In this document: positions 791 to 56,900 of the stretch, piece by piece | Layout of the letters: every line of letters starts with the position of its first letter | How positions within the stretch are numbered: position 1 is the first letter of the stretch | Assembly (NCBI GenBank): GCA_001938485.1 | Contig: MQRK01223727.1 | Location: forward strand, 7,213 to 71,212 | Direction: 5' to 3' | From: Girardia tigrina | Taxonomy: Eukaryota | DNA length: 64,000 bases | Notes under the pieces: model-generated | The model's input: the letters and a program-made list of their open reading frames with translations, nothing else | The model's database searches: none | Told to the model about the DNA's origin: nothing | Translations under genes and position numbers: made by a program

Positions 791-3431
791 TGATTTCAAA
801 TTAAGAACAATATGAGTGATATGAAGAGATAAAATTGACGTATGGAAATTTATAATATTATAAAAGGGATCATTTTTAATAGATCTTTAATAGGCCTTTA
901 CAGTCTGTCATGGTTAAAATTTAATGTCATTCCCCCCTCGTCACACTTCGCCACAAAATTCTGACCTGCCTCCCCCTCCTACGTGACGTCATTTATGGAC
1001 AGTCTCCAATCGTTAGTTAGAATATGTGTTTGATCAATATGAAAAATTAAAAAGAAATCTCATCCGTTATCAAAATATCAGGAAGGAGGAACACATTCTA
1101 TTGGAGATTTTTTAACACTAAAATATTTGATTGAACATGATATCGTAACGAATCGAGCATATATGGAAATCAGTGAATTACGTTCAGCGCCACGGAATTA
1201 TTACTGCAGAATTTACCTCTCAGTACTGAAAATATTAATGAAGAATTCATTGTAAAATAAATTTATCGGTCTAAAAATTCATTAATCATTTTTTTGCATT
1301 TTTATTTGTTTAAATTACATCTTTTTCGACATGTGTTTACTAAAATATTTTAAATTTGTTTTATTTGCAGTTGAAAAAATAAATATTAAAATGATAATTG
1401 ATTAACCTCATCAGACCTGACTTTATTTTAAATATTTTTCAAAATTTGCAAGAATGGCACATAAAACAAATGTTACTCACTCGATGGGGACACTGGCAAG
1501 AATAAACGAATAAATATTGTGTACACTTTGATGTATAATAGGTTCCCAATAAAAACAAGTTGAAAATGGCTTTGAAAGAAGGATTGAAATTTATGTACAT
1601 TACAATGTGCACTGGGTCTGAGGAGGTTAATTAAATTGAATTTATTAAACTTCATCTGTAAGTATGGCCAATAACAATATTAAGCACAGTAATAGAAATG
1701 CGGTTAACATTGGGCTCCAATACCGAGTAAAAGAATTTGGATAGGATAAATTTTTTGCGAAGGTGGATTACTGCCAGTTGATCATATTAAACACCAGACT
1801 ACAGCTGATTATTTACAGGCATAGAAGCACTCAGTCCTTGCAAAAAACAACAACATGAAGTCATGAATTACCTCACAAGCAACAAAGGATGAAGTGCCAT
1901 TATTGGATGCATTAAACGATCAACTATTTCAACTGCTGCTACAGATATGTTAATAATGGAATTGGTTGAATCAGTTATGGTAGCTAATATACCACTGGAG
2001 AACGTTGACAACATTACATGTGTAGTTTTATATAGCAGAACCCAAAGGATGGTGGTAGTATACCACGAGCAAATACACTTAAAAAACTATATGTCACAAA
2101 AACATTCAAAGAAAGTGGTCGAATGTTGTTGTTATACTGTGAATGTACTGATTCAACCTCTCAATGCTTTAAAACCAGATCTCATTGGAAACATGTTTTA
2201 ATATTTCCTTTTTCATCTTAGACTCTAAATTACATTGTATTTGTTCGAATAAATTTCTGATCCAATTAATTAAAGAGTCTGTCTTATTTTTTGTCAAGTG
2301 CGTTTATTTGCTTTTTTTGCTGATTTTGAGTCTCTTTATTACCCTCTAATTTATCGAACAATTTATTGGAATTAAAGTGTACGCTTTCAAACTACCTCCT
2401 CAAAGATATATTGGAAATCAAATTTATAAAATGAATAATTAAATTTCATATATTATTATAAAATAATATTATTTTGTGAAATTGGCAATTGTACTAGACT
2501 GATGGAACATCGTACCCTTCTATTTGAACTGTTACGAGAAACAAGGTCACTTAATCGTAATTATATGTTATGTCAATTCAAAAATAAGGAATTAATGATT
2601 ATTATTTCCATACGTAAATTATTTATTTGCGTGTGATTAGTTAAAAACAACTAATTTAATTAATGTCTGTTAGAATTTTATATTAGAATGAATTTGTATA
2701 ATTATATATTGTATGTATAGGACAAACTAAAAGTTAACTAATTGATTCGCAATCCTAAATTCTGCTCCAAATAATAACCTATATACCATCAATTGGGGTT
2801 GATGTTAGAGACAATCTGAATCTTTTTAAGTGTACAAAAAATATAGCCCATAAACATTTTTTTAAACTATTATTTAAAAAAGTATTCAATAAACCAATCT
2901 TACCTTTAAACCTTGTCAATTTATTTAAACGAATGGTTCAAAACCAGAGATACTTTAAGTTTTTAAAATGGTGAATTTATAAGTGATGAATTTAAGTGGT
3001 GGAGATTTAAAAAATTAGTCCTGTTATACATAAAGTGCCTTTTATAACAGTGAAAATGCATCTCAACACAAAAAAAATCATAGTAATCCAAGAGATAATC
3101 GTATGAAACATTTGTCATTATGGAATTACTCATTTACCAAAGTTAAATTGAATAAGCAAACTTGAAAAGGTAGTTCTATATACATGTTCTATTTGGACTC
3201 CATTTGAATATAAAGTCATAGTTAATTAACTTCTACAATTGTTTTTTAAATTAAGATTTGCAAACTTTGTATTCATATAAATTGTAAAATTTTTTATGAC
3301 TTGGCTTTAAGTACTGCCGCTTTCAATCTGAATTGTTATTACATTAAGTTAATATTGTTAAATAATTTGAATATGTTTGGTTTTATTGTTTATAATTTCA
3401 TTTCTAATTGAAATTTAATTCTAAATTTTAG

Positions 3432-6400
3432 AAAATTTAGATGTAAAGCCATTTAATGTGATGGAAACTTCATCGTCCAGTGTTCTTGGTGATCCTCCAC
3501 TTATTAAATGGAACATATTACGAAACCAACAAGGTACTGTGTTTGAAGAGATTGATGGAAGTCGCATTGAAAAACAATTGGATCTTGATGGATTTGAAAA
3601 AATATTTAAAGTACCCCCCGTTGAACATGAATATGATGTTCCTCCATTAGATACCATTGATGGAAAAGGTGCTGAGAGACCTGATAGAATTTTAAATAAT
3701 GGTCAAGGAAATCAAGGAAATGACCAGGCTGATAAAATCTCATTACTAGATCAAAATCGTCAAAAGTAGGTCATAAAGTTTATGCGAACTTTATTTTAAA
3801 ATAACTTAACTAGATGTATTAAAATGGTGGTCAATTATTTAATTCAAGAAAAACTTTTGCAAAGTGATGCAATCTCTTTCCGTGAATGGGGAAGGCCCTT
3901 GGCATGCGCTATTACTAACTTTGATATGCCTTCCGAAGCTGCTGATCGATTGTTGTATCAGTTACCAAGCTTCCAGGAAACTGATATGTATCGTGATATT
4001 ACCGGTGAAAGTCTCAATGTTTTGGCTAATGAAGATCGTTTAGTAGCACTTTTATCATGTATCGATCGAGTTGAAATGAAATTAGAAGCCATTTTGTATA
4101 TGGATGCCTTTGATGAAACATATTTTGCTTTACAAGAGGTTTTCATTATATCTTTTTCTTAATTTCTTATCATTAATAATTATGTTTATTAGTAATTATT
4201 AATTATAGTTATTAAAATTTATCATTTTGTATAATTATGTATTGGGTTGTTGCATAAGCTCCCGCCGTTACATGAAACTATTTGTTCTACAAAGACTTTT
4301 TTATGTTTGGCGAAGTGTTATATACCAATAGAAAGCCCGTGCTATGCTCTACAAGATTAAAGTAATCGTTTTTGACTATATTATTTTTTTGCCTTTTTTT
4401 AGAACCGTCAAATGGATTGTCAAGTCGACAAAAAATCGCATTTTCGACACCTGTTTTCGCCTTTAATCGAGATCAAAAAGCGAGTGAAGCTACCAGAGAT
4501 ATTTGTGCCATGTATGGAGAGGACGCTATAGCTGAGAAAACTGCTCGGGATTGGTTTGCCAGGTTCAAACACGATAATTTCGACCTCAACGACACTCCTC
4601 GTTCCGGAAGACCAGTCGAGATGGACGAGGACAAACTCGGGGATCTTTTGATGGAAGATGGCCGAAAAGATGAATTGTGATTTGGCGACAATTTCACGCC
4701 ATCTTCAGTCGATGAATTTCACTCAAAAGCTTGGAGCTTGGGTCCCGCACGAAGTCACCCAAAAACAGAAGGATAAGCGGCTTTCCATTGCTGCTCAAAA
4801 TCTCGCTCGACACCAAGGAACCCATGACCACAGGCAACGTTTCTTATACAGAATCGTCACTGGAGACGAGAAATGGTGTCTCTATGTGAATATGAAACAA
4901 AGGAAAGAGTGGATGAGTCCTGGAGAGAAGCCTAAGCCCAGGATCAGGAAAGACCTGCACCCGATGAGGACAATGATTTGTGTATGTGGGATTGGGAAGG
5001 TGTAATTCACTGGGAAATGCTTGGAAAGAACATGACAGTAGAAAAGAAGTACTCAGTAGAGCTCGGTTGGGAGGTCCTTCAACATCCTCCCTATTTCCCG
5101 CTCTTCCGCTGCCTTTCAAATGAAATGAGGGGTCTTAGCTTCGAAAATCAGGATCATCTTGAGTATTGGCTCAACAACTTCTTCGAGACTCGACCTAAGG
5201 ATTTCTGGCGAAGTGGAATCAACAAACTGGTGGAAAGATGGGAAGAAGTAGTGAACAATGAATGAGAGTACATAATTGATTGAAGTGTTATTATTTTTGC
5301 TGTTAAAATTTTATGATTTCATTAAATATATAATTAACTGAGTCATTATTTTGGTTGTTAAAATTCTTTGATTTCTTTGAAAATAAATGTTTAAAAAACG
5401 GCGGGAACTTATGCAACAACCCAATATACTTAGTTTGGAACGAACGTTTTGTCAGTTATTTATAAAACTGTAAATAATATTTTAAATTTTATTTTATATG
5501 GATATTATATATATATATATATATATATTATGGATCGTTCTTAATTACCGTATTTTTCCGTGTATAAGATCCCCCCTTATTTTTGGATGTGCATTTTTGG
5601 AAAAGAATTCAAAAATGTACATTAATTCATTCCAGAAAATAAATTAAAATCTTTTGTGTTCGATAAATATTTCAAATATTTACTAATTTTTGAAAATTCG
5701 CGCTAAATATTCATTAAATTTTGACAAAAAAGGGGTCTTATACACGGAAAATACGGTAGTTATGTTCTTAAGCATCTACCATATGCTCCAATACCTCACT
5801 TTGCATCCGGGTTACGTTTCATAAAAACAAGACGCAAATTTTTGTCACCAAGCTGATAGTTTTTTTATTTTTATAATTCTACCAGCAGCGCCCTGTCCAC
5901 TCATTTGGCTAAAAAATTACTAATGCATGTAAAAAAATAATATAGCTCTGCCAATAAATAAATTGGAAAAATATTTACCTTTTTTGTAACTAGAAACAAC
6001 CCGTTAAAAATGTATAAAAAATTATTATTCTCTTTTAAAAAAAGCACAATTTACTAAATGAAACGTTACAAAAAGCCCAACACACTACATAATTGAAACT
6101 GAACTCTAAAATTAACAAAACAAAATGAAAAGAAAACTGTATTAAAATTGCGTTATTTTTCAGTTAGAAAAGGAATCCCCGAGTTTTGATGACATTGCGC
6201 AATTAGAAACAAAACTTATGTCATCTTTTAGAAAAAAAAGAAAATGTCAAAAAAATAAAAAAAAATTAAAGACCCAAAAAACGCAACCTCGAAAATCTAA
6301 CGGCGCACAGTGAAAATTAGTACTAATTAAGCAGCAACGCAACTTCGAAAAAATGCAAAACGAAACGACGCAAAGCGAGATAATAGTGTAGTCTTGATAT

Positions 6401-15400: not shown

Positions 15401-18400
15401 CAAAGCGTAATCTAAAACTGGCCAAATGTAATACTGATTTTATTGTGAATACTTCTCACAATTGTCACATTTTGAATCATGACTGTATTCGAGTGACTTA
15501 TTCTTCGTCATTTGGGTTAAGGATTAACCTAGGTAACGATCTTGTCTCACTATCCTTTGTTCCAATATCTTAGGAATATTTTCTTTATGGCGGATGATAG
15601 AGTCTTAAATGGAAATGATGTCTTACTCGATTTTGATTTGACAGAATTAGGTAGACGATGAGATTATTTTAAAACATTCTGCATAAGTGGTTGCAATCAA
15701 AATTTTCTGATTTAGTATTGTATGATACAGTGTAAAAAAGGACAGCCTCAACATTCGTTACTCAATTTCTTGGTAGCCTAAATATAGTTTTGCCAATCCA
15801 TGTACAGGATTAATGTTCGTGATCGTCGAGGGGTAAAATGAGACTTGTTTAAGCAAAAATGATGTTTTTAATTGAATTCTTTTCAAATTTTGAAAATAAA
15901 TTTAAATGTGAAATGATTTGATAAACAAACACTGTTTATTTCGGATAGTCTTTTTTCATGAATGAAAGCGATGCATTGGTTATTTGGAAAAGTACTTTTA
16001 TTGTGACATTGCATTCAATTGTTCATCAACTCCCAGGGATACCTAACAGCAGGATGATTTTGTTACTTTTTTAATTCTGCTCATTTGTACTTTTGGTTAG
16101 AGTATAAACTTGTATTGCAAATCAGGGAAGTAATGTTAAACTTCGTGTTACACTTTAATATCTAATGAAAAAAGACTTCGCTAATGAATGGCTTATCCTA
16201 TGTTTTGATAAATATTATTTTTTGTGTTATAAATTTTACGTTATTCATTAATGTTTTATTACCATCTGACTTTTAAAAACGGTATATCTGTGTCAAAATT
16301 ATATGTATCATGTTTTAATATCTACACATTTAATGTGGACTAAATTCTTGCTGAAGCAAATGTGAATTTCAAGTCTTTCTCAAAGATATTGATCTCTTTC
16401 GTGGTTCTTAGACATGTAGTATGAAAAATCATTTCTACTAGTGCAAAAATAAATGTTTTATCATCATACGAACATAGAACCCACTGTCGTAGAAGTGTTC
16501 ACATCATATTGTTCAACTTCGATACTGAGAATCTACTAACTGCTTTTGCTAATGCGCAACTAAAAGTAAAGTTAAAAATTTTAATTAACGACACCAAATG
16601 CGGAAGTATGTTTTCTAGCTTATAATGTCCCCAAAGGGAATAATACTGTAATATACATTTGACGATTTATTATTTCAAATAGTCATAAAGGTTTTTGAAC
16701 TTATTGAATATCGGTATATAAAGTGGAGGATTTCTGTGTTGACCATGTTGTTATTTTGCTCTGAAAATTTATTACCAAATCTCTTTAAGAAGCTTGTTAT
16801 ATTTGAGTTGGCAATTTAAGTAATTGTTATTATTTCAATATTTTATTTTTAGTTGTATTTGGTTTTTCTCATATATTATACTTTTTTTAAAAAAAATAAC
16901 CAAAATGAAAATTGAAAATCATGTTTGAAGAATTTAAAATTTATAAAGGTTGTTTTGTTATAATATATGTTGAAGAAATTTTTATTATACAGTCAGTCTT
17001 TGTAATCTCATGGCTGCTCTGGAAGAACTTAGCACCGGTTTAGAAAGAGTTGCAGAAGAATTAGCATTAATAAAGAATGCAGTGGAAAATAATCCAGATC
17101 TCATTCCCACAAGATTAGTTAATTTTGTCAGAGAAAATAATAATCGAGTGAATCTACTTAAAAATCAAACAGAACAAGCAAAAATAGCTTTTGTGAAAAC
17201 TGTCGAATGGTTTGGTGAAAAAGATCTCCAAACAGCGTCGCCGGACTTGTTTTTTGGCGCTCTTGTTCGATTTATGGACAGTTTCAAAGTAATTTTTTTA
17301 TTGATTTTAGTTTATTTGATTACTAAGACTTAATTTATTTAAAATAATTGTAATTTTTAATGAAGATGCCAAACGTAGTTTAACTAGAATAAATAAATAT
17401 TATTTCAAATTTTATTACTAGTGTATATTTTCGTTATTTTATTTAAATTATATATTTTTATTAAAGATATTATCTGGGATACGTTCAATAAACACCCAGA
17501 CTAGATCAGAATGTAAATTATTAGAATAATAATCGTTAAGTCTGTAAGCTATTTAGTCAATAATGTTATATGATATGTTAAACAAGTTTTACACTTTAAA
17601 TTGAGATTTTTATCCCTTAATAATATTAGGTTGTTGCAAAACCAATGCAGGTTTTTGCACATAAACTTTAAACAAATGTAACTCAGTACAGAAAAAACTC
17701 TATTAATCAAAATAAAAACCATCAGAATCAATACATTTTTGCCAACGAGAAACAAGTTAATTGATGCCTCTAGTGTAGAACGCCTGAATTCTGAATGCGA
17801 TGAAAGCGTTAAAGGCGTCTTTGGCGTCGTCTTGGTTTTGAAGCATTTTTCCTGGAGCGAGTTGTCCAGATGCTTGAAAATATGGTAGTCGGTGGGCGAG
17901 AAGTCCGATGAGTAGGTTGGATGAGGCAGAGTTTAGTTGCCCAATTTGTTTATCTTTTGTAGGGTCGGTTTTGCGATGTGTGTCCTGGCGTTGTTGTGGC
18001 CGCTTCATATTGACCAATCTCGGACACATACGTCGGAGCTCGTGATGCATTTTTTCAATTTTTGCCAGTACTTCTCTGCGGTGTTCGTTTCACCCTTATT
18101 CAGAAGGCTGTGATGGATAAGACCTGCTGCAGACCACCAAACAGTTAACATAACCTTCTTTAGGTGGAGTTTCGGTTTCGTAAAGTAGTGAGTAGTCTCA
18201 TCGCGGTCCAACCATTGTGCCAAATATCGCAAATTGTCGTAGAGATTCCAATTCTCATCACACGTCACAACCCGATCGAGAAACGGGTCGTTCTTGTTGC
18301 GCAGTAGTAGCGTGGAAGACACCTCAAAACGACGATTTATTTTTACTTTCGTTCAATTCGTGAGGCACCCATTTATCGAGCTTTTTCGACTTAACAATTT

Positions 18401-22813: not shown

Positions 22814-24310
22814 CAGTGCTGGAAAAATGTCTTTTGACAGTGCACTTTTTTGCGATTTTTAGTGAAAATATATTACCAAAAACAGTTTTTCAACCCAATT
22901 TTTTAATACAACCTTATAAACGTATAATTTATCTATTTTAAGTAAAGAATTAATACCAGGATTTTTTTAATTTCAATCAAGAGAGAAAACAGCTTCGATA
23001 CGGCGTTGCATGCTCTCAGCAAGTTTCTGGCACTCCTCTGCAGTGGTCTCTAGGCACCATACCCGTTTGATTTCCTCTTTTAATTGACTTATAGATGTTA
23101 TTTCGATCTCACTGAGTTTCCTCTTCATGTTGGACCACAGATGTTCAATTGGATTCAGGTCTGGGCTGTTGGATGGTTAGTCAAGCAGCTCAATGTTGTT
23201 GTCCTGAAACCATTTTAGCGCCTTTTTCAACAATGGCAAGGGGCATTGTCTTGCTGGAAAATTGTACAACCATGGACGCACATAAAATGAGCCAACTTCT
23301 CTTCTAAAATATTGATATAACCATCAGTATAGAGTCTTTGGTTTGAATTGAGAAGTGTAAGCCCCCCTCGGCCATTGTGGGAAAAACAGTCCCAAACCAT
23401 GACAGAAGCTGGATGCTTGCTAGTCTTCTTTGTGTACCTTGGGTTCACCGGTGATGAGCAACTGGTCTTCGAACTGTCTGATTGGGGCAATTGTTGATTT
23501 GGAATGAGTTTTCATCACTGAACATAACCTTTTTCCACTGTTCAATCGTATAATTGTAGTATTTTTCACAAATTGTAATCGCTTCTTTCTCATTGCACTT
23601 GTATTGATTGGTTTTTTCACAGCTTTACGGCTGGAATTTTGAATTCCTTGCACAGGCGATTTCTTATGGTACGTGTAGTAACATTGCTGCACTGCACTGC
23701 CAGATTGCGCTTGATTTGGGCAGAAGTAATAAAGGGATTCTTCACTGCTTGCATTCTTATTAGTGCATCAACTCGAGGCGTGGTTGCTTTAGGCCTGCCT
23801 GATCTTGTTTTAATTGAAGTATTGCCTTCGGATTCATATCTTTTCATTATATTGGCAACAAATTGATGGAAAATTCCATACTGAGCCGCAATTTCTCTTG
23901 TTGACAGACTTGTATTTCAGTGTGAGGCTAATATAGTACATCGAATCTCTTGGTCTACTTATTTTTCAGGCATATCAAAAAAAATTCGCGATTTGATTGA
24001 TTGATGAGGGAAGAAAGAAGGATAATGCATCATATGCAATACAAGTGACGCAGCTTATTTTGCATGCACTGTGCATATAATAACATATTCACATGTGTAT
24101 ACATGGTCATGCATACATATTAATATGTAAGCATTATGTATGCTCACATAATATCCTTAAATAGTCTCTATTAATTGTTTACTTAAAATAGATAAAATAT
24201 ACGTTTATAAGATTGTATTTAAAAAATTGGGTTGAAAAACTGTTTTTGGTAATATATTTTCATTAAAAATCGCAAAAAAGTGCACTGTCAAAAGACTTTT
24301 TCCAGCACTG
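22814..24310 (-). mobile_element. Tc1 (DD34E) transposon with long TIRs, decayed ORF
   Basis: ~130-bp TIRs starting CAGTGCTGGAAAAA with TA TSD (22812-13, 24311-12). Fragments RSGRPKATT, KHPASVMVW and FQQDNAPCH..NSPDLNPIEHLW, with 34 residues between D and E after correcting one frameshift. Confidence 0.93.
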
Positions 24311-33221: not shown

Positions 33222-34688
33222 TGTAAAAATAGAATCAAGTATTCAACAATAAAGATTCTACTTTTACTACAAATAAGTTATAAAAAAAAGGAAAAAAAAA
33301 TTATGATAACGTCGCAATTATAACACTAAAAAAAACAAATAAAAAATAACCTCATAGCATATAAAACAATATTTATTGGCCTAAACAGTCACAGATAAAC
33401 ATTCCGTAATAATAAGCTTCAGACGGTAATTAATTATAATTTCTATTTTATCATTCGATATCTTTATTGATTTTTGTTTTCAAATATAATTTAATATTTT
33501 TCAAATGAATATTCATTAACGATATATAAAAATCTCAGAAAATAAATATTACAGAGATCGGATTGTATGAGTGTAGAAACTGGAAATTTTAAACAATTAA
33601 ATATGAATTAGAAATAAATTCTTTATTTAAACGATGTTTAAATCATTCCGACCCAATTGATGAGCATACGAATGGCAGTTATCAATTAATTCGAGTTTTG
33701 AATGAAATCTTTCATAATCATTTGCACCAGGAAAAGCGCATAATACGTCTGGAAATATTTGTAGGGTCCTGAGACTTTGTAACTGACACGAGAGATAGAG
33801 AATGTGATGGAGCAAGTCCGCAGGAAGTGGGGTAAAGTTTTGAATACAAAGAACTCTTAGGCTTATAATTTCAGCCANGCACGTATCTTGAAGGACACAT
33901 TTGGATTTGACTTTCTGTTCAAACTTGAACTTTGGAACTGGTGGAAATATTCTATCTGGAGTTATTAGAGGAGACATTATGGTTTTCCCAATCAACTTAA
34001 GGCATTTGCAAAGTTTTTGTCCTGGAATGCTACAGTACGCGATGGAGAAGTACACGAGATTCCCGTTTAGGACACTACGAGCAATTAGTGCTTTGATTAA
34101 GCGGTCGGGGATTTCGCTGAAGTTATTCCGAGAAAGNNNNNNNNNNNNNNNNNNNNNNNNNNNNNNNNNNNNNNNNNNNNNNNNNNAAGTTCCTTTACAA
34201 ATGGAAACGGTCTCCACGAGTAAATTAAAAATTCAAGATCATCAATTTGCAAAGAACAATCCTTTTATTTGATATTCTTCTATTTAATTCAGCCAATATC
34301 TTTTTTCAAATAAAATTGAATTCACCGTTCGTTTTGTTTGTTAACAAAATATTGTTTTCAGTTGATTCTGTTTAATTTTCTTTTCTTGAAGAGGATGTGT
34401 TTGATTAATATGAAACTTGTTTACTGTCTTTATTTAATTGATGCAACGTTTTTNNNNNNNNNNNNNNNNNNNNNNNNNNNNNNNNNNNNNNNNNNNNNNN
34501 NTTTTCAAACAAAACAACAAACGAACACCAACACCCACACTTCTCCAAATACAAAAGGTACCAAAATACACAGGACTCCCTATGTAAAAAGAAAAACCAA
34601 TCACACCAAGGCCTTGTACAAAAAACAAAAGAAAGAAAATCACATACACACATAACCAAAAAAAATAAAGAATCAGTAGGGCACTACA
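33222..34688. mobile_element. TG..CA element with 5-bp TSD carrying a host-like LRR sequence
   Basis: Termini TGTAAAA..CAGTAGGGCACTACA and perfect TSD CAATT (33217-21, 34689-93). Excision restores the Gypsy RT frame. Contains two N gaps. Confidence 0.8.
33627..34264 (-). pseudogene. LRRC14/PRAME-like leucine-rich-repeat gene fragment (cargo)
   Basis: 170 stop-free codons (34136-33627) with LRR units LSRNNF, NLVYFSIAYCSI, LRVLCIQNFTPL and LQSLRTLQIFP. Before the gap another frame reads KDCSLQIDDLEFLI..FPFVKEL. The family call is from recalled resemblance of the C-terminus, not a search. Confidence 0.55.
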
Positions 34689-35166
34689 CAATTCACAATG
34701 GAACACACCAATAGTATGTGTTTGGAAAAAAGACAAGGACGAAATCAAACTGTGTCTAGATTTCAGACAGTTAAACCAAATTACAAATAGACAGGCATTC
34801 CCCATACCAAATATAGCGGAAATGATGGTTAGGCTACATGGAACCAGATTTTTCAGCACAATAGACTTAGGAAACAAGTACTACCAGGTAGAATTGGACA
34901 AGGAATCACAGGAAAAAACGGTGTTTTCCACTAAATCAGGACAATTCTGTTTTAAACGGATGACTTTCGGGATAGCAGCAGCCCCATGAATATTTCAGGA
35001 ACTAATGAACAAAGTATTAAAACCGATAAAGAAGGAAGCATCAGTTTATCTGGATGACATATTAATAGCAACAAGCACAAAGGAAGAACATTATAACGTA
35101 GTCAAAGAAGTATTTTGAAGAATAAAGGAGACAGGCTTAAGAATCAAACCACCGAAATGTAAAATA

Positions 35167-36695
35167 CAGGGTGACGCAAAATAAACTCCAAGGTACTTTT
35201 CTTTTGGATCTTTTTATCCTCCTACTTTTTTATAGGTTAAGTATACATTTTTAGAATCCTGAGCGTCGCCAATTTCTGATGCTATATAAAAAAATCAAAA
35301 ATTAAAAAAAAATTTTGAAACGAAAAATTTAACAAACTTTTTATTCCATAAAAGCATAACAACAATTAATTATCGAATTTCAACTTGTCCTCCATCTCTA
35401 AGAAAACATTCATGCAAACGTCGTCTGTAGTCGGCCAAAACGCGTTCACGAAGTGCGTGGTCTCCACGGATTTCATTGGCAAATCCTTCAATCGCTGCTC
35501 TCAACTCTTCGAGTGTGCTTGGACGTTGTTCGCGATGATAAATTCGACTTTTCATGTAGCCCCACAACCAATAGTCACATGCTGTAAGATCTGGCGAGCG
35601 AAATGGCCATGTAACTGGAGCAGGATGCGCCCGTGTTTTGCGACCTATCCATCGATTTGGAAACTGTTGACCCAACAATTCAAGAAAATCTCTAAGAATG
35701 TGTGGCGGAGCGCCGTCATGCTGCTCAATGAGAGAATTGAAATTCGGCCAAGTTTGAAGCTCTGGAATAGTGTGCTCTTGATACAATTCAGTCATCCAAC
35801 GACCATTGATTCCGCGCTCATTTCCTTGTCGCTCCCAAAAGTATGGGCCAACAACACCTTCGACACCAATTCCTATCCAAACTGTCAATTTTTAGGATGA
35901 AGTCGACGAACATCAAACCAATGAGGATTTTCATCGGCCCACATGATCCAGTCTTGACAATGAGTCTGTTTGCATCTTCATCCAATCGATCCAATTCGGT
36001 TCGAGCAAACTCAATTCGAGCGGCGTAGTCGGTCTCCTCCAAGGCATCAGCCATTTGCAAATGATAGGGACGCATCTGTAAGTCTTCTTTCAAAATTCGC
36101 TGCAAGCTTCTTTGTGACATACGAACTGTTCCGTGATCGTCTTCTTCGCTGTCAGTGTCGCCAGTTGAATTAATTGGATTGCGTCGAGTTGATAGATGAG
36201 GATTTGCAGTAAAGGCTTCACGGACGTCTTCAATGGCTTCTTTGGTGCGAACACGTTTTGGCTTGTTCTTTCCGTGCTTTTCATGGACACTTCCAGTCGC
36301 TCGAAAATCGTCAATCCATTTTACAATGACTCTTTTTTCCGGAATCTTTGCTCGACCATTTCTTGTTTCACTTCGAAATTGAGTTTTGAGCTGCGCATAA
36401 TCATAGGCTTCCTCAACAAGAATCAAAACGAGATGAGCTTTTTGCTCATCTTTATACGTCATTTGAATCAAATTTTAGGGTAAAACTTTCTAAGTTCATT
36501 TAAAAAAACGCTTGTTAATTTTTTTTTTAATTTTTGATGTTTTTTTTATTTTTTTTTATTTTTTTTATTTTTTTATATACCATCAGAATTTGGTGACGCT
36601 CAGGATTCTAAAAATGTATACTTTACCTATAAAAAAGTAGGTGGATAAAAAGATCCAATAGAAAAGTACCTTGGAGTTTATTTTGCATCACCCTG
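35167..36695 (-). mobile_element. Tc1/mariner element of the DD41D (rosa/VS)-like group, long TIRs
   Basis: ~140-bp near-identical TIRs starting CAGGGTGA(C/T)GCAAAATAAACTCCAAGG with TA TSD (35165-66, 36696-97). Transposase motifs FRATGSV, PYHLQM, QHDGAPPH, FPNRWIGR and WPFRSPDLTACDYWLWGYMKSRIY. The first-Asp segment is deleted with a frameshift. Confidence 0.92.
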
Positions 36696-37358
36696 TATTA
36701 CGACAAGAAGTAAAATTCTTAGGACACGTTATAAATGATAAAGAGATATAGTTAAATTAAGTTAATTAATTAATTAATTGTATTAAATATTAATATAAAA
36801 TTTTTCTTTAAAGATAATAAGATTTTTCCTTTTTATAATAAAAATTTCTTATTTTTCAATTCGGAACCGATACAATACATCAATACTTCTGAAATTCGAT
36901 TAAAATCAACAAAAACTACATAATAAATAAATAATAAATAAAAAGAATCATTATTATGCTAATTGTCATCATCGAAAAGAAATCGACTCATTTGTGAAAG
37001 GTTCATATTTATCCTTTATAAACATTAGTACCCCTTACCTTGTATCACGCTTGAATAACCTATGTTGATAGAATAAAACATAAATATTGTGAAGATATCT
37101 TTAAACAACTTGATTTATGCAGTGTGGATCAAGCGTTACCTGGCAAGATCTTGTAAATACATTTTACTTGTGAACATAAGCAAAAATATCGAAAATTTTT
37201 CAATGATTCTGTCTTGGATATTTTTGTCTTTATTTATGATATAAAATACTTAATAATATATACTCATTATAGTTTCAAAAATATTAATTTCATTAAATTT
37301 ATACATGTATTCATTTAATATAAGAGGAAAGCTATATTTTATTTTTCAACACAAACAA

Positions 37359-38459
37359 TTATAATGGCTTGCATTTATCGGTTACTACTCTTTTAGTTTC
37401 ACCAGGTGTATAAGAGGTTGCAGTTGTATATTTTCCTGAACCGACTTCTAGTCCAGTTTCGTATTCAATCCAGTCTAGATAGGAAGAAATTCTTGTATAT
37501 ACACCAGGCGTGTCTTTTCCACCGCATCCACTGCCATAAGAAACAACTCCTGCTAATACGAATTGTTTAAATCCACCTTCCGATAACTTTTCACAAACAA
37601 TAGGACCACCACTATCTCCTGTACATGCGTCTCTCTTTCCCTCTTTGAAACCCGCACATAGATTTTCTTCGTATATAACATTTGAACCACAATGTTTTTC
37701 CTGACATGTATCCGCAGCTATTATAGGTAAGTTTACTTCCAATAAATAATTACTAGCGGCATCACCATGTTCTGTTTTGCCGTACCCACTTAAAGTGCAA
37801 ACATTATCATCAAATGCTTCACCAGGGTTTGGAAGGCAAACAGGAGCAACAAATTTATAGTCAAAAAACATCGGTTCAGCCAATTCAATTAGAGAAATGT
37901 CATTATATTTTGTGAACAAAGTAAAACCAGGATGATCAATTAATTTCTTTACCTTGACATTTTGTTCCGGGGCTTCAGTTATATTTATTTGAGTTTTTCC
38001 AGCTCTAATTCGCCACTTTTCAATTGGTAAATCTTGAAAGAAGAATGTACAATGAGCCGCTGTTAGAACCCAATTAGGATGAATAAGAGCTCCTCCACAA
38101 TGATGAGCACCATCTCTTTCGATTTGAACCTGCCAAGGCCATTCTCCGGGCATTGATCGCCAACCTCCGAAAACTTTGAATTTTGAACCATTACTGATTC
38201 CACATCTTTGATTTCTTTTTTGTGGTTTTTCATTTTTATTTAAAGGTTTACAGCAACGATGTTTGTCATTAGGACAAATTTTTTCACTTCCTTGTGGTTT
38301 AACCTCAGTGAATTCTCCTTTAAACGGACATGGATCCTCTTTAGTTACACAGACTCCATCATATTTAGCAAAACATAATGGTGTTTCATCTACATAACAC
38401 AGAATTAATGAAGTTTGTAACACAAATATAACAAAACAAAATAATTTTCTTTCAAACAT
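37359..38459 (-). CDS. Secreted trypsin-like (S1A) serine protease with N-terminal six-Cys (clip/beta-defensin-like) module
   Basis: Intact 366-aa single-exon ORF with a hydrophobic signal peptide, C-x7-C-x6-C-x17-C-x6-CC, and activation site K|VFGG. Catalytic triad TAAHC / NDISL / GDSGGP; Asp in the S1 pocket (RDAC). Confidence 0.95.
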   Translation of the reverse strand: MFERKLFCFVIFVLQTSLILCYVDETPLCFAKYDGVCVTKEDPCPFKGEFTEVKPQGSEKICPNDKHRCCKPLNKNEKPQKRNQRCGISNGSKFKVFGGWRSMPGEWPWQVQIERDGAHHCGGALIHPNWVLTAAHCTFFFQDLPIEKWRIRAGKTQINITEAPEQNVKVKKLIDHPGFTLFTKYNDISLIELAEPMFFDYKFVAPVCLPNPGEAFDDNVCTLSGYGKTEHGDAASNYLLEVNLPIIAADTCQEKHCGSNVIYEENLCAGFKEGKRDACTGDSGGPIVCEKLSEGGFKQFVLAGVVSYGSGCGGKDTPGVYTRISSYLDWIEYETGLEVGSGKYTTATSYTPGETKRVVTDKCKPL

Positions 38460-38999
38460 TTTTTAGTTCAAATAAATTATAATGGGATCAAATTTAAAGT
38501 GATTGTTATTATAATAGAATGGATCAGTTTTAAATAAATATATAAATATTTGAGAGTTTATTAAGCAAACTTTTCAAAGACATTTTAGATTGAGTTCAAA
38601 AATAGGCAAACAAATTGTTTAATAACATTTAGAAAGTTTAACGATCGTACATTATATCAATTTGCTTTATAAATTTTAAATCGAGGTTAATATTGTTTTG
38701 CCATAATAAGTTGTTAATTAAAAATAATTATTTTAAAAAATTATTTCGGGACAGGTGATACATATATGTGCCATATACCTTTGCGCGCTTCTTTCTTATC
38801 TCAGCTTGATTTTTCATCTAAAGTAGCATATGTTTGACATTACTCATCAATAACGTCTCATTTCATTCATCAATTCATTTTATTTTCCTCTATCACACAA
38901 TTAAACACTTTCAATGCATATTTTAGATGAAAAATAAATTTAAAATTTTTCCAAAAAAAGCCGGTCCTGAAAGTGTTAAAGACGAAAAATTATGACTAC

Positions 39000-42899: not shown

Positions 42900-43772
42900 A
42901 TTTGAGTGTACAAGCTAATTTAGTTTATCAATTTAAATGTCACAAGTGTAAATCCGTGTACATTGTGTAAAAGAGTTAATTGAAAAAATTAAAGTTCAAT
43001 TAGCTCTTTTAACGTGAATAAATAAAAATATAAACAAAAATAAATTTTAAATTAACGGTAAATACAATTAACAAATAGAAATTCTTTTGATATGGTGACG
43101 AAAAGAGTTTCTACGAACGATTCGACGGACAATAATTTGCTGGAAAGTTTCAGGTATGATAATGGGAATAAATGTCTTCTATAAAACTTTCGATCGGATA
43201 CACATAATTCCAAAACTCTTGAATGTCAGTGTTGTATTTGATACAGTTGTGATTATTAATTTGTTTAAGTATTCTAAAAAGATTGTAAATATTAAATAAA
43301 TTCTACTTGTTGATATTATGAATCCTGAAGTGAAACCTGGAGATTTAACTGATACTGTCTAGGATTTTTGATTATTTGTCGTATCTATATTCCTGTGGAT
43401 TTAACATTGGCATTGATATTTTTTTTAAAAAAATCAATTTTATATTTATATTAATATTTTTAATATTTATATGTACATATAAAAATATATTTAATTTTAT
43501 ATATATAAATATATAAAATACGTATGTGTGACAGTAGGTCACTACATATTGGAGAAACACATCGTCATTTCCATACTAGAATAGCAGAACACACTCAAAT
43601 GAGTAGAAACAACTCCATTCTCGATCATATATATATAGTTTTCGTGATCATGAAAAAAATAAATTATGAAAAAGAATTCAAAGTATTAAGTAAAAATTTT
43701 GACACAAATTTCGAGCGGATAATCACTGAAGCATTATTTATTAAGCAATTAAAACCATGCTTAAATATATAA
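42900..43772 (+). mobile_element. Penelope-like GIY-YIG endonuclease remnant, split by an insertion
   Basis: Rejoined frame NLVYQFKCHKCKSVYI|GETHRHFHTRIAEH..RIITEALFIKQLKPCLN. Confidence 0.85.
42966..43546. mobile_element. TG..CA element with 5-bp TSD; same termini as 33222-34688
   Basis: TGTAAAA..CAGTAGGTCACTACA; TSD CATTG/TATTG (42961-65, 43547-51). Excision restores YIGET. Confidence 0.8.
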
Positions 43773-49397: not shown

Positions 49398-50630
49398 GGT
49401 TCCATGACAATTCGACACACGACAATTCGACACAGACAATTCGACACAAGACAATTCAACACAAATTTTTTAATTCGACATATTTGTCATTCATTTCGAC
49501 ACAAATTTTTTAATTCGACACATTGTTTTAATGGGACAAATATTTTATTTCGACATTTTTAAATTTCGATTAGTTTTTTTTAATTCAACACTTTTTTTTA
49601 ATTCGACCAATAACTAAAATGAAATATTTTCATTATTACTACACATTTTTTGAAACTCGACATTTTCAATAACTATATTTTTGGTTAGACTAATGAGTTT
49701 TTCTGTATTTAATATGTAAAAAATATCAATTTAATATGAAAAAAAATCAATTTTTATGAAAAAATATGTATTTACTATGAAAAATGTTTTTAATATAAAA
49801 ATATGTATTTCATATATAAATATATCATTTTAATATGATAAAAATCAATTCTCACATATTTCTTATCAACTTATATTGAGGGTGCTCTTGGTAGAGCTCC
49901 TCAGTTTCCAATAAAATACTGGAACCATTTCGATTCAGCTGGTGAGCAGACACCAAAAACTACAAATTGTTGTGAAGGTTTCCACAATGCTCTTAATGCC
50001 ATATTTCAATGCAGCCACTCCAGTGTTTGGACCTTGCTTGATGGACTTGGAAGAGATATAGCTTGTCACAGACTGACTTTGGCAAATGCTCTGTCAGGTC
50101 GCCTTGTGGTTGTAAAGAAAAAATATGTATCATTGAGTGAGGCTATTGCAATGGCTGTGCAGCAAGAATACAATTTGAATGCATCGAATGATGAAAAACT
50201 GAAATAGTTGCGTTGGCTAGCTGATTTGCAATGAATAAAATGTTAAAAATTAACTTTTACTGTGTCGAATTAAAAAATTTGTTTCATAAAAATTGATTTT
50301 TTTCATATTAAATTGATATTTTTTAATATATAATTGATTTTTTATATAAAATTGAAATCTATGTTCAAAATAATGTGGCAGGCTGAATTGTAAACGAATG
50401 CATTTTTAAAACATTAGTTCATATTAAATTGATATTTTTTCATTGATATAACTCATTAGTCTAACCAAAAATATAGTTATTGAAAATGTCGAGTTTCAAA
50501 AAATGTGTAGTAATAATGAAAATATTTCATTTTAGTTATTGGTCGAATTAAAAAAAACTAATCGAAATTTAAAAATGTCGAAATAAAATATTTGTCCCAT
50601 TAAAAAAATGTGTCGAATTGTCTGGTTACC
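49398..50630 (+). mobile_element. Mutator-like (MULE) deletion derivative
   Basis: GG..CC termini, long inverted arms with AATTCGACA repeats, TSD ATTGTAAC (49390-97, 50631-38). Internal fragment PQFPIKYWNHF..PKTTNCCEGFHNALN..HSSVWTLL. Confidence 0.88.
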
Positions 50631-50981
50631 ATTGTAACAGTCTTTCTGATCAATATTACCACATATTCGTTATGCGTCCCAACTTTCGGAACCGAATAGA
50701 GACGCAAAGCGGGGCCTTGGTGTAATTGTTGTCATGACAATTCTACTTGATAAATGTTCGAAAAATCATATTGGTGTTGTTATATTGTGATGAAGATGAT
50801 GCAAATTGTGACTGTAACAAATCTGCGATCAATAACAAACAGAATAGAGATAAAATCAACAAGTAAAGACACATAAATAATTTATTGATTAATGTACACA
50901 ATATAAAACAGGGTTCTCTCTCTATCCATCTACCGCAATCTCTGCAAGCCAGTGACTGTCACCGGTGTGCCGACCGCGCTC

Positions 50982-53900
50982 TCATTCGTCGATCTGTGGA
51001 GCCCAGAATGTGAGGTTGGTCACGGCCGATGCGATCATGGCGAATTTGGGATTGAACGCGATGCAGTTGATTGGCTGGGAGGCGCTGTTGGGCGTGTGGT
51101 CGATGCCCGGGATCAGGGCCACCTTGTTCTTGTTCTCGGTGTTCCACACGCACAGCTGGCCGTCTGGAGAGCCGCACACGAGGTACTGGCTGTCGGGACT
51201 GAAGCACACGTCGATCGGGTGTCGCTGAGGGTTCGCGCCCATAATCTACCAATCGATCAATCAATCACCAGCCGGTCATAATGACTCTTTGAGTCGATAC
51301 AAATTATCGATGCCAAACTACACCGGGTAACCGAAAGGCAAGTGCAGTAGCACTAGAAACGATCAGGACTTGAAAATATTAACAATTTAGATATGGTTTT
51401 GTTCATTTGTATCGTCATTTCCAAATTCGTGAATCGATTTTGGTGACCGCAGATTTCCCCCAGAAGAAAAATCCCGGTAACCGAAAATCCAATTTTTCAA
51501 AGGCTCGCATTGTGTGGGATCATCCATTTATTACGTACGCAAAAAAATTAATATTTTAACCTCCATTGCACCCAGTACATTTTGAACTACCATAAGCACA
51601 CACAAATTGAGTCTCGATCCACCAGTTTTATACAATGTTCTCAATTTCTTCCAGCAAACACTGTATCATAACAAGTGCTGGCTGTGTGCATTGTATGCCA
51701 TATCCCCTGTATTATTAGAGTACAGCGAAAAGGAACAGAACAACAACAATATGCGCTAGGGAATCTTACAATTCTAACTCTATATTTTTACACCGACATT
51801 TAATTCTTTATTAGATTTCATATTCCACCTGTGTTGATAGAATGATGTGTGTTCACAGAGCAGAACAATAAAAAGATGTTTTTAAGGAAGCCATTTGATA
51901 CTTACCCACCCCCATTATCATACGCACCCATACGCAAAATCTTTTAAATCTAAACACCCCCCTCCCCCTTCAGTGCGTACATAATATACGGATGGTCCCT
52001 CTCGACATTTACTGAACCGAATCTTTTACAGTGTGTAATTAGAACTAGTACATCAAAACAAAATTTTCATGTCCATTCTTTATACTGGCAGAGCTCTACT
52101 TGGGCGAGAGAAAGTAGAAGATGACAACTAACAGCACACCAAAAGCTAATCTTTGAGATGAAACTTCTCACACTCAATACAATCAACTCAATTTCAGCCT
52201 TCCATCAAATCCAAAACAATGTGTATATTCAGACGCAAAAATCAATTATTTTTTGAACAACTTGGAAAGAACGAAGAAATTCAAAACAAAATGTATTTTG
52301 TCTTGTGTAATTGTTTTGCATTGGCCAGATGTGTTATTATACTGAGTGTCACCAGTGTCAAACCTGGTACAGTTGAGAGAAAAAAAGGAGCTGACCAGGC
52401 ACCTCTAGCGGGATCATAAATTGGAGAACCGACAATGACACCAGCGCAAACCAGTACAACAAATAAAACAGAAGAAAGAGTCGTAGAAAACTACAATATT
52501 TCAGGCAACCAGATTCAATCCGTGACGGACCCCCCGACTATCTCGACGGCGGTGGAAGAAGCGATAGGTACTGAAGAAACACATCTGACTTTTAGGATTG
52601 CAGATCTAACTGNNNNNNNNNNNNNNNNNNNNNNNNNNNNNNNNNNNNNNNNNNNNNNNNNNNNNNNNNNNNNNNNNNNNNNNNNNNNNNNNNNNNNNNN
52701 NNNNNNNNNNNNNNNNNNNNNNNNNNNNNNNNNNNNNNNNNNNNNNNNNNNNNNNNNNNNNNNNNNNNNNNNNNNNNNNNNNNNNNNNNNNNNNNNNNNN
52801 NNNNNNNNNNNNNNNNNNNNNNNNNNNNNNNNNNNNNNNNNNNNNNNNNNNNNNNNNNNNNNNNNNNNNNNNNNNNNNNNNNNNNNNNNNNNNNNNNNNN
52901 NNNNNNNNNNNNNNNNNNNNNNNNNNNNNNNNNNNNNNNNNNNNNNNNNNNNNNNNNNNNNNNNNNNNNNNNNNNNNNNNNNNNNNNNNNNNNNNNNNNN
53001 NNNNNNNNNNNNNNNNNNNNNNNNNNNNNNNNNNNNNNNNNNNNNNNNNNNNNNNNNNNNNNNNNNNNNNNNNNNNNNNNNNNNNNNNNNNNNNNNNNNN
53101 NNNNNNNNNNNNNNNNNNNNNNNNNNNNNNNNNNNNNNNNNNNNNNNNNNNNNNNNNNNNNNNNNNNNNNNNNNNNATTTATTGGATAAATTAAATTTAT
53201 TTTCGGCAAGCTACCATATAGTGTACTTGCGTAGTGTATTTTGTGACCTGATGATGGGATTATTATTATCTCGAAACGCGTCGTCTTATTTTTATTCCTA
53301 TTATATAGATTTTACTGTACAATGTGAATATACATCGATATTATTATTTATATTTAGAATTTCAAAATCTGGTTTATGTAACTGAAATATTGATCCTCAT
53401 AAATTTGTTTGAGTGATGAACAATGACTCTGGATTTTAATCACGAACCCGATATACACAAATACATTGTGAAATAAACTGTCCTCGTCCTTTTCAGCGGC
53501 ACACAAAAAACGTTTTTTGTTTCGAATGTTGAAATTCAGTAAAGTTATGTGTGAAATCAATTTGGAAATATCGATAAACAGTGAACGAAACAAACAGCAG
53601 ATAAATCGTCGATATTATTACGTGTCTCTATGGCGATATTGTCGCTATATGGCGATATTGACAGCAAAAAATTAGGAAAAAATAAAAATTAATTACAAAA
53701 AATTATTGAAAAATTTATAAAATTATGAAAAAATACTTAAAAATCAAAAAATTATTACAAAAATTTTTTACTGAAAATATTTTGAAAATTGTTTAAAAAA
53801 ATATTAAAAAATATCAAAAAGTAAAAGATTCAAAATGAAGAAAAATGAAGAATTATAATAATAATCAAAGATTCAATTTTTTACTTTTTAAAAATCAAAT

Positions 53901-56900
53901 AACAGCAAAAATTTACGAAAAAAATACTTAAAAATAAAAAAAATATTACTGAAAATATTTAGAAAATTAATTAAAAAAATCAAAAATTGTAAAAATTTAT
54001 TATAAAAAAATTATTGAAAAATTTATAAAATTATGAAAAAAATACTTAAAAATTAAAAAAAATATAACAACATTTTTTTTACTGGAACTATTATGAAAAT
54101 TATTTAAAAAATAATTAAAAAATGTAAAAAAAGTAAAAGATTCAAAATGAAGAAATATAATAAAATCAGGGATTCAATTTTTTACTTTTTCTTTTAAAAA
54201 TCAAATAACAGCAAAAATTTACGAAAAAGAATATTAAAAAAACAAAAATTAATTACAAAAAATATTGAAAATTATGAAAAAAATACTTAAAAATCAAAAA
54301 ATATTACAAAAATTTTTTACTGAAAATATTTTGAAAATTGTTTAAAAAAATATTAAAAAATATCAAAATGTAAAAGATTCAAAATGAAGAATTATAATAA
54401 TAATCAAAGATTCAATTTTTTACTTTTTAAAAATCAAATAACAGCAAAAATTTACGAAAAAAATACTTAAAAATAAAAAAAATATTACTGAAAATATTTA
54501 GAAAATTAATTAAAAAAATATTGAAAAAAATCAAAAATTGTAAAAATTTATTATAAAAAAAATTATTGAAAAATTTATAAAATTATGAAAAAAATACTTA
54601 AAAATTAAAAAAAATATAACAAAATTTTTTTACTGGAACTATTATGAAAATTATTTAAAAAATTATTAAAAAATGTAAAAAAAGTAAAAGATTCAAAATG
54701 AAGAAATATAATAAAATCAGGGATTCAATTTTTTACTTTTTCTTTTAAAATTTCTTTTAAAAATCAAATAACAGCAAAAATTTACGAAAAAGAATATTAA
54801 AAAAATAAAAATTAATTACAAAAAAATTATTGAAAATTATGAAAAAAATACTTAAAAATCAAAAAATATTACAAAAATTTTTTACTGAAAATATTTTGAA
54901 AATTATTTAAAAAAATAAGAGATTCAAAATGAAGAAATATAATAATAATCAGGGATTCAATTTTTTCCCAATTCGCACTCCTGTTACCGGGAAATAAAAA
55001 TCCTAAAAATTAATTTCCCGGGAAATCTGAGGAGCGGATTATAATACGATTCAACTTATTGATTAAAGTAATTTATAAATCGCAAATTATTATTTTTTGA
55101 CAACAAGAAATTAATTTTACAAATTAAAAAAAAATAATAATAAATATTTAAAAAATAAATAAAATATTTTAAATTATGTCAAAATAAAAAAAATGAAAAT
55201 AAATGTAAAGATCGATTAAATAATTTTAAAAAAATAAGAAAATTTTTCTATATATTTTTAGTTATTTTTTTATAAAATTTTTTTATCTTTTTTGATTTTC
55301 AAAAGAAATTTACCGATTCGTCACCAACTTAAATAATATTTCTTATTTTAATTAATTAATTAAATGACACTTATACGTTGAAATTACAGTGACCCTTAGA
55401 GAATGTGCCCGATTGTGCAGTCCCCATGAAAAGTTACTGTTGTCATGACAACCGATCAAGAATCATTACCATAAAGTTAGCGACCGATTTCCCGTCGAAC
55501 GCGTCAATGACTTTGATCTGGCTGCCGTTGCTGCAGATCGCGATCATCCTCCCGTTCGGACTGAACTTGAGCGCGTTCCACTCGTCCTCGGCCTCCTGGG
55601 TCACCTCGAACGTCACGAACGGCCCCTTGTCGTAGGCGCGCAGGTCGTACAGTCGCATGCTCTCCGAGTTCACCCCGGCCACGAATATGTGGCCCTCCGG
55701 GTCGAATGCGCCGACCGGGCGACCGGCGGTGTGGATGAATCCCTGGTGGAACGAGATTATCGATTATCGATCGATTACAACCATTTGCACCCACTTGAGA
55801 ATTGTGAGCCTTGAGATCCCACAATCGGATGGTCTTGTCGAGCGAGCCCGACAGGAACAGGTCGCTCACCGGGGACATGTTGAGCGTCACCACTCTGAAC
55901 GTTTTTATAACACCACACAAATATTATTAATTAAATCAATAAAATTAATTAAATTTTAAATTTAAAAATAATCTAAAAAATAATAAATATAAAAATGAAA
56001 TAACAAAAAAATTCTAAAAATTAAAAAAAATAATTTTATAACAATTAAAAATTTAATTTATCAGAAAATATCATTTAAATAATTTTTAATGGTAAAAAAA
56101 TTTTTTTGTAAAATATTCTTTAAATCATTAGGAATAAATTTTAATTTGAAAAAATTATAAAAATATAAAGAATAAAAAATTAAGTTTTAATTTTTCAGAA
56201 AAAAAATCGTATCGATTTAAATATTTTTAACGATAAAAAATATTCTAAAAATTAAATTTTAATTTTGAATAATCTAAAAATAATAAATAAAAAATTAAAA
56301 TATTTTTAACGGTAAAAAAACGTTCTAAAATATTATTTAAAAATCAATAAAATTAAATTTTAATTTTGAAAATTATAAAAAAATATAGAAAAAATTATAA
56401 ATATTAAATTTAAAAATAATTTTGAAACAATTAATTTCTACGGTAAAAAAATGTTCTAAAATATTATTTAAATCAAAAATAATTAAATTTGAATTTTGAA
56501 AAATTATTATAATATAAAAAAAATTTTAAATTTAAAAATAATAAATATAAAAATGAAATAACAAAAAATTCTAAAAATTAAAAAATATTAATTTTGTAAC
56601 AATTAAAAATTTAATTTTTCAGAAAATATCATTTAAATAATTTTTAATGGTAAAAATTTTTTTTTCGTAAAATATTCTTTAAATCATTGAGAATAAATTT
56701 TAATTTTAAATATAAAAATAATATAAAAAAATAATAAATATAAAAATTAAAATATTNNNNNNNNNNNNNNNNNNNNNNNNNNNNNNNNNNNNNNNNNNNN
56801 NNNNNNAAAAATAATATAAAAAAATAATAAATATAAAAATTAAAATATTTTAGCGGTAAAAAAACGTTCTAAAATATTATTTAAAAATCAATAAAATTCA

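Follow-up and report, generated by a model that had tools for sequence, protein, structure and literature searches.

Pack-MULEs are DNA transposons that have long terminal inverted repeats, are flanked by duplications of 8-11 bp and carry genomic cargo. TR-GAG elements are non-autonomous elements of plants, in which an LTR is followed by a primer site, gag as the only gene, a polypurine tract and a second LTR. For retroviruses, the oncogene-transduction model invokes read-through, splicing and recombination in reverse transcription. In the sections of the literature drawn on here, splicing from retroviral or cryptic donors to host acceptors has been described (PMC515179), and Tan et al. (2016; PMC5131818) reported LTR-mediated retrocopies in which the cargo replaced part of the internal ORFs via microsimilarity that "can occur anywhere". 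The excerpted LTR motif survey of the Metaviridae (Ty3/Gypsy) gives the Zam motif AGTTAYRK / TAAYT (PMC3601003), and the corresponding passages on the CsRn1 clade of Gypsy elements, which includes PwRn1 and AgCR, give a CsRn1-like Gag motif, CX2HX9CX3C (PMC2582038).

The window analysed here, i.e. the whole stretch of DNA under study, comprises 64,000 nucleotides of the Girardia tigrina contig MQRK01223727.1. An earlier note, made from the letters alone, had picked out an element at 42966-43546 (el2) with the same termini as a longer one at 33222-34688 (el1) and an unrelated interior, and had proposed a 'Pack'-type family with conserved ends and variable cargo. Its description of the element was confirmed: el2 measures 581 bp, starts with TGTAAAA and ends with CAGTAGGTCACTACA. 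The following features were assigned to el2 and its borders:

42961..42965, no strand: left target-site copy of el2, CATTG
42966..43546, minus strand: el2, a solo LTR (TG...CA) belonging to a gag-only Ty3/Gypsy-type family; minus the nested insert, it measures about 470 bp
43240-43244 and 43351-43355: perfect GATAC duplication of the nested insert
43245..43350, plus strand: nested 106-bp solo LTR of an unrelated young family, with AGTT...AACT ends, antisense to el2
43356..43430, minus strand: variant-specific ('A') segment in the el2 LTR, directly following its AT-rich start and A-run/TCAAT motif; searches gave no source outside LTRs
43547..43551, no strand: right target-site copy of el2, TATTG, with one mismatch
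43548..43766, plus strand: right flank of el2, a frame beginning IGETHRHFHTRIAEH and interrupted by el2

Very probably, el2 is a solo LTR that stems from a short gag-only retrotransposon and has a 106-bp solo LTR of another family nested in it. It was likely left by LTR-LTR recombination in an element that likely depends on the reverse transcriptase and integrase of an autonomous Gypsy relative, and it holds no detectable host cargo; its sister family, el1, carries spliced host exons at a fixed junction, likely acquired via a donor in the LTR. The genome contains at least 60 matches to el2, of up to 93% identity apart from el2 itself (best 40 of 2126 candidates scored), and most of them cover the blocks 1-282 and 385-550. 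Alignment of el2 with ten short copies (409-468 bp) extends over 401-448 bases at 88-91% and, for most copies, leaves a single el2-only segment of 111 bp. The interior of el2 thus aligns along its length with solo LTR copies, as ordinary diverged solo LTRs do, and the suggestion that el2 is a 'Pack'-type carrier has to be given up: it is an ordinary solo LTR with a nested mini-LTR, not a cargo carrier. Among 14 solo copies with both ends (two pairs of which have common flanks), the 5-bp duplication is perfect in nine, has one mismatch in four and two mismatches in one, and is hence within one mismatch in 13 of the 14. The duplication around el2 itself is imperfect (CATTG/TATTG, 4/5 bases), so that the previously noted 5-bp target-site duplication stands as to its length and not as a perfect repeat.

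The terminal 15-mer occurs twice in the window, both times exactly, and has 261 exact matches in the 1.43-Gb genome compared with one for the reversed control; the T form found in el2 accounts for 4/100 among the matches listed. The reported 14/15 identity with the end at 34688 was reproduced, though the alignment attributes it in part to a 2-nt insertion private to el2. At 44 places (control: 0), the CACTACA end is adjoined by the reverse complement of a polypurine tract, three of these junctions having el2-type interiors (L064/L065 and L127). Since the tract abuts this end, the sense strand of el2 is the minus strand; the element described earlier is therefore real, and the direction in which it had been read was the wrong one. 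Like the solo LTRs of the Metaviridae in the survey passages cited above, el2 has short inverted TG...CA ends; it differs from them in holding a nested LTR and in belonging to a family with many interior types between fixed ends. The insertion point of el2 lies at the YIG motif of a Penelope-like endonuclease frame, and other el2 copies have unrelated flanks. A Pfam search with the frame to the right of el2 (IGETHRHFHTRIAEH) gave zero matches; presumably, it resembles a Penelope-type GIY-YIG endonuclease.

The two-LTR relatives of el2 consist of an LTR, a TGGTGTCAGAA primer site, one ORF of about 450 aa, a polypurine tract and a second LTR, with LTR pairs that are 98% (L112), 94% (L131) and 95% (L417) identical and an internal domain of about 1.3-1.6 kb. 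Their ORF features a CX2HX9CX3C motif, which reads CWYHERYGNDAFRCQKHC in L064/L065, and a GPY-like stretch near its end. In L064/L065 and L127, an el2-type LTR follows the polypurine tract and the 5' LTRs are of other types; no element with el2-type LTRs at both ends was found, paired LTRs having been seen for the related types L112, L131 and L417. About 80 bp of flank are repeated on both sides of the element in L065. Among 20 gag loci picked from 150 gag matches, none had a reverse-transcriptase match and none an autonomous partner of the el2 or el1 families, such as the earlier note had hoped to find with the same ends; an integrase lies upstream of gag in one of the 20 and is likely a neighbour. 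As in TR-GAG, the el2- and el1-type elements harbor a gag-like ORF without pol between their LTRs; they differ in occurring in an animal genome and in an ORF that also keeps an integrase-tail-like stretch. With the CsRn1 clade, as far as the cited passages describe it, the el2 family shares the CX2HX9CX3C Gag motif and a GPY/F-like stretch near the end of the ORF, while it lacks pol, its primer site TGGTGTCAGAA is not of the tRNA-Trp type and its duplication comprises 5 bp instead of the 4 bp given for PwRn1.

The 106-bp insert belongs to a very young, high-copy LTR family with AGTT...AACT ends and 5-bp duplications (43245-43350; L086-L105). The best 40 of 1525 genome candidates scored are all 99-100% identical to it, and 20 loci read included five with a perfect 5-bp duplication, seven with a polypurine tract before the insert and one with a TGG primer-like site after it. 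Its AGTT...TAACT ends are similar to the Zam motif as given in the survey passages. As a high-copy mini-LTR, the insert was ruled out as a host exon. The decayed minus-strand frame reported for el2 does exist as a peptide, with its halves on opposite sides of this insert. The frame runs through because insert and duplication together amount to 111 bp, a multiple of three, and a one-base indel private to the el2 copy puts the first half in frame. In ten el2 copies, the longest open frames measure 46-77 aa and lie in differing frames; the peptide is thus there, and the frame is not kept in other copies. In this respect, el2 is a caution, as a nested mini-LTR created both its odd length and the apparent decayed frame.

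Past an AT-rich start and an A-run/TCAAT motif, the el2-family LTRs form mosaics with many types of interior. The interior of el2 could be old host cargo, if the TGTAGTGACC family swapped the part after its AT-rich start for 5' pieces of cellular RNAs, which would make both families gene-capturing. The many interior types with common ends and nested 3' parts would fit, as would open frames of 87-120 aa within some interiors and two non-LTR-looking homologues (69-77%) of the L318 interior type that end at a GTAAGA donor; these homologues may be other LTRs or first exons. The genome searches speak against such an origin. All 22 matches (22 candidates) to the variant-specific segment of el2 lie in LTR context, which leaves the idea of a host-derived interior in el2 without a source, and the 23 matches of the B segment all belong to LTRs or to repeats of another kind. 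For an el2 copy that lacks the insert, the 65-aa frame has at least 46 genome matches among 60 candidates listed; the five unexpected contigs inspected turned out to be LTR copies or, in the case of a '441-aa open frame', an assembly-gap artefact. The el2 peptide has zero matches in Pfam and no credible match among 1.84 billion proteins (there were two hits, both to tandem-repeat proteins with one weak 22-aa stretch), and the frame is not conserved among copies. Old cargo in el2 is therefore unlikely. The continuation of L312, considered as host cargo, matches another repeat family.

The features of the second element, el1, are as follows:

33222..34688, minus strand: el1, a solo LTR of the sister family, with a perfect CAATT duplication, inside a reverse-transcriptase frame
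33222..33470, minus strand: 3' module of the el1 LTR, with the A-run/TCAAT motif at its start
33471..33977, minus strand: captured host exon B, which includes the stop codon and the 3' UTR; no intron separates it from exon A
33978..34261, minus strand: captured host exon A, LRR-like and AG/GT-bounded, with a length of 237 bp in the host; the el1 copy has an assembly gap
34262..34688, minus strand: fixed 5' module of the el1 LTR; its last bases, ...AAAAG, border the cargo junction

The frame that el1 interrupts was recognized by Pfam as RVT_1 (E=3e-8). As stated in the earlier note, the interiors of el1 and el2 have no real similarity, the best local match reaching E=0.03. Between the two families, the internal ORFs show 35% identity over 214 aa (E=3e-20), and primer site and type of polypurine tract are common to both. 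Given these homologous ORFs and shared sites, el1 and el2 represent two sister families and not, as had been assumed, one family with swapped cargo. A third sister family (L402, L404-L406, L408, L410, L411, L414) has LTRs of about 170 bp, 95-99% identical in pairs, with the same primer site, a single ORF and no pol.

In the LTR of the el1 family, the cargo junction has a fixed position at about 425 bp. The genome has 34 matches to a pattern for the last bases of the fixed 5' module, and 30 of these matches were read, which together with the window copy gave 31 junctions (a single locus may account for three contigs of the L186 type, and two of the junctions form the arms of an inverted duplication). 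Twelve are empty and continue with GTCTTG; the other 19 bear cargo of seven types. The base before the junction is G in 18/19 cargo copies compared with 4/12 empty ones, the copies not being independent. All five cargos tested out of the seven types, the other two being L177 and L179, have a non-LTR host match of 95-100% that starts right after a pyrimidine-rich acceptor AG. For the interior of el1, six genome candidates include two stand-alone host pieces at 99%; both start after a pyrimidine-rich AG, and the first ends before GT. Fixed LTR-type ends with variable host cargo, the core of the original proposal, are thus borne out for the el1 family, with seven cargo types and host exons as the source of all five tested.

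GT-AG introns are absent from two of the five cargos, those of the LRR and L186 types. A third, the L023 cargo, joins pieces that lie 14 kb apart in the source, with a canonical donor and with TG, not AG, before the second piece. On their 3' side, the cargos are joined within A-rich stretches that also occur where the LTR 3' module begins; four of the five joins lie in sequence resembling a 3' UTR and one immediately beyond the open frame. Only one of five cargos examined is in frame with the ATG upstream of the junction, so that selection for fusion proteins is not apparent. Copying continued for several cargos, and some of the copies have internal deletions. Those of L191 and L196 (L380-L386, L392-L401) are found again with internal deletions or downstream of different 5' LTR parts, which indicates a reshuffling of cargos among LTR variants.

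Among the longer proteins searched, the LRR cargo of el1 had no public homologue at E<=0.001, which is weak evidence, and Pfam returned only LRR_1 (E=0.004), below the cutoff. For the other cargos of the family, the only Pfam hit was LRR_8 in L196, likewise below the cutoff; we take them to resemble WIPI/ATG18-like, FN3-like and membrane-tail sequences. In L109:1345-1990 and L177/L178 (C70853), pieces of el1-family LTRs and cargo stand in inverted, fold-back arrangements. Adjoining LTR elements, L257:2405-3358 (plus strand) and L165:2210-2911 (minus strand) contain intron-less frames that resemble a sulfotransferase and a Nudix/decapping-like protein, respectively.

These findings point to an exon trap inside the el1-family LTR, in which splicing is followed by a template switch. 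The capture mechanism of the el1 family is RNA-level and retroviral-like, and not the Pack-MULE-like DNA capture that had been proposed, as there are two-LTR elements and the cargo lacks introns. On balance, we favor the view that this gag-only Gypsy-type group is a natural exon trap: the splice donor of the LTR joins host acceptors in cis or in trans, the A-run with which R begins allows the first-strand DNA to jump onto host 3' ends, and the exons spread as solo LTRs, with at least seven captures in the el1 family and with the el2 family as a perhaps older branch that acts similarly at a different LTR position. The AAG|GT site in U3 would serve as splice donor in transcripts that read through the 3' LTR, its partner being the next acceptor of the host. 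If the A-run/TCAAT motif marks the beginning of R (the U3/R borders being deduced), the first-strand DNA would end in a T-run, which could jump onto an A-rich spot or the poly(A) region of the chimeric RNA. The host exons would thereby become part of U3 and be copied into both LTRs, recombination between which would leave cargo-bearing solo LTRs. Mobilisation could be provided by an autonomous partner, which was not seen in the loci read. The presumed donor, AAG|GTCTTG, poorly matches the usual splice-donor consensus. A few contigs from public runs leave the empty el1-family LTR near the junction; they may be genomic cargo copies, their RNA status being mostly guessed.

With retroviral read-through, as described in the cited passages (PMC515179), the el1 family has in common the joining of an element donor to a host acceptor and a subsequent recombination inferred to occur in reverse transcription; it differs from what these passages describe in a donor located in the LTR, in cargo present in both LTRs and in solo LTRs, and in at least seven captures in one family. 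As an LTR-mediated retrocopy, it presents intron-less host mRNA flanked by element sequence, with host sources in 5/5 cases. Like the retrocopies in the excerpted text of Tan et al., it shows spliced, partial host mRNA in a non-autonomous LTR element that was copied further; unlike in that text, the el1 cargo is located within the LTR, always at the same position, and begins at acceptors of the host, although the supplementary junctions of that study may hold exon-boundary cases. The literature searched, which left out most subscription papers, contained no report of fixed-donor splice capture inside an LTR.

Within 144.7 kb read around the five source genes, gaps included, none (0/5) had a family member nearby, which weakens the cis read-through step. 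The LTR donor could instead be trans-spliced to acceptors of host pre-mRNAs, so that no insertion in the gene would be needed. In favor of such trans-splicing are the 0/5 source loci, and also the source exon of L196, which encodes a likely signal peptide and upstream of which about 30 kb were read. Set against this are the short and gapped contigs, and intronic insertions may be polymorphic or purged; trans-splicing of this kind is rather improbable. Ordinary microhomology template switching on a co-packaged mRNA, with the AG of an exon end as the match, would be a further way to obtain the cargo. The LTR junction does end in AG, as many exons do, the 3' joins lie in shared A-rich stretches, and no element was found upstream of the source genes. 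Yet, 5/5 cargos begin exactly at an exon start, and seven cargo types occupy one LTR position just before GT. Also, the microsimilarity described in the passages from PMC5131818 can lie anywhere and involves cargo replacing internal ORFs, unlike in the el1 family, and microhomology switching appears improbable.

The similar termini, 5-bp duplications and unlike interiors of el1 and el2 might have pointed to a single family of Pack-MULE-like DNA transposons that pick up gene fragments from genomic DNA between common ends. This reading retains practically no probability: the inversion of the ends is limited to 4 bp, there are a primer site, a polypurine tract, a gag-like ORF and direct repeats in pairs, and the cargo is spliced rather than genomic. 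Fixed ends, a variable host-derived interior and multi-copy cargo are what Pack-MULEs have in common with the el1 family only, whereas both el1 and el2 are LTRs with 5-bp duplications. Two-LTR elements and missing introns refute the DNA transposon reading.

For the favored exon trap, the location of the cargo has consequences. Host sequence inside an LTR is duplicated at every replication and outlasts the loss of the element body; hence, processed exons can scatter across the genome in sense orientation to the LTR promoter. With a fixed donor, RNA sequencing can address the capture route directly, and the lack of elements upstream of the source genes poses the question whether splicing takes place in cis or in trans.

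Elsewhere in the window, an open frame of 367 aa at 37359-38462 (minus strand) resembles, by its motifs, a secreted trypsin-like serine protease. The frames at 3425-4162 and 16974-17333 (plus strand) and at 50907-51281 and 55443-55923 (minus strand) are exon-like frames presumably resembling a formin, and GC-rich exons presumably resembling WD-repeat proteins, amid transposon debris. Pairs of inverted repeats of 70-150 bp surround transposase-like frames at 22824-24301, 35163-36699 and 49512-50619, and these are likely DNA transposons.
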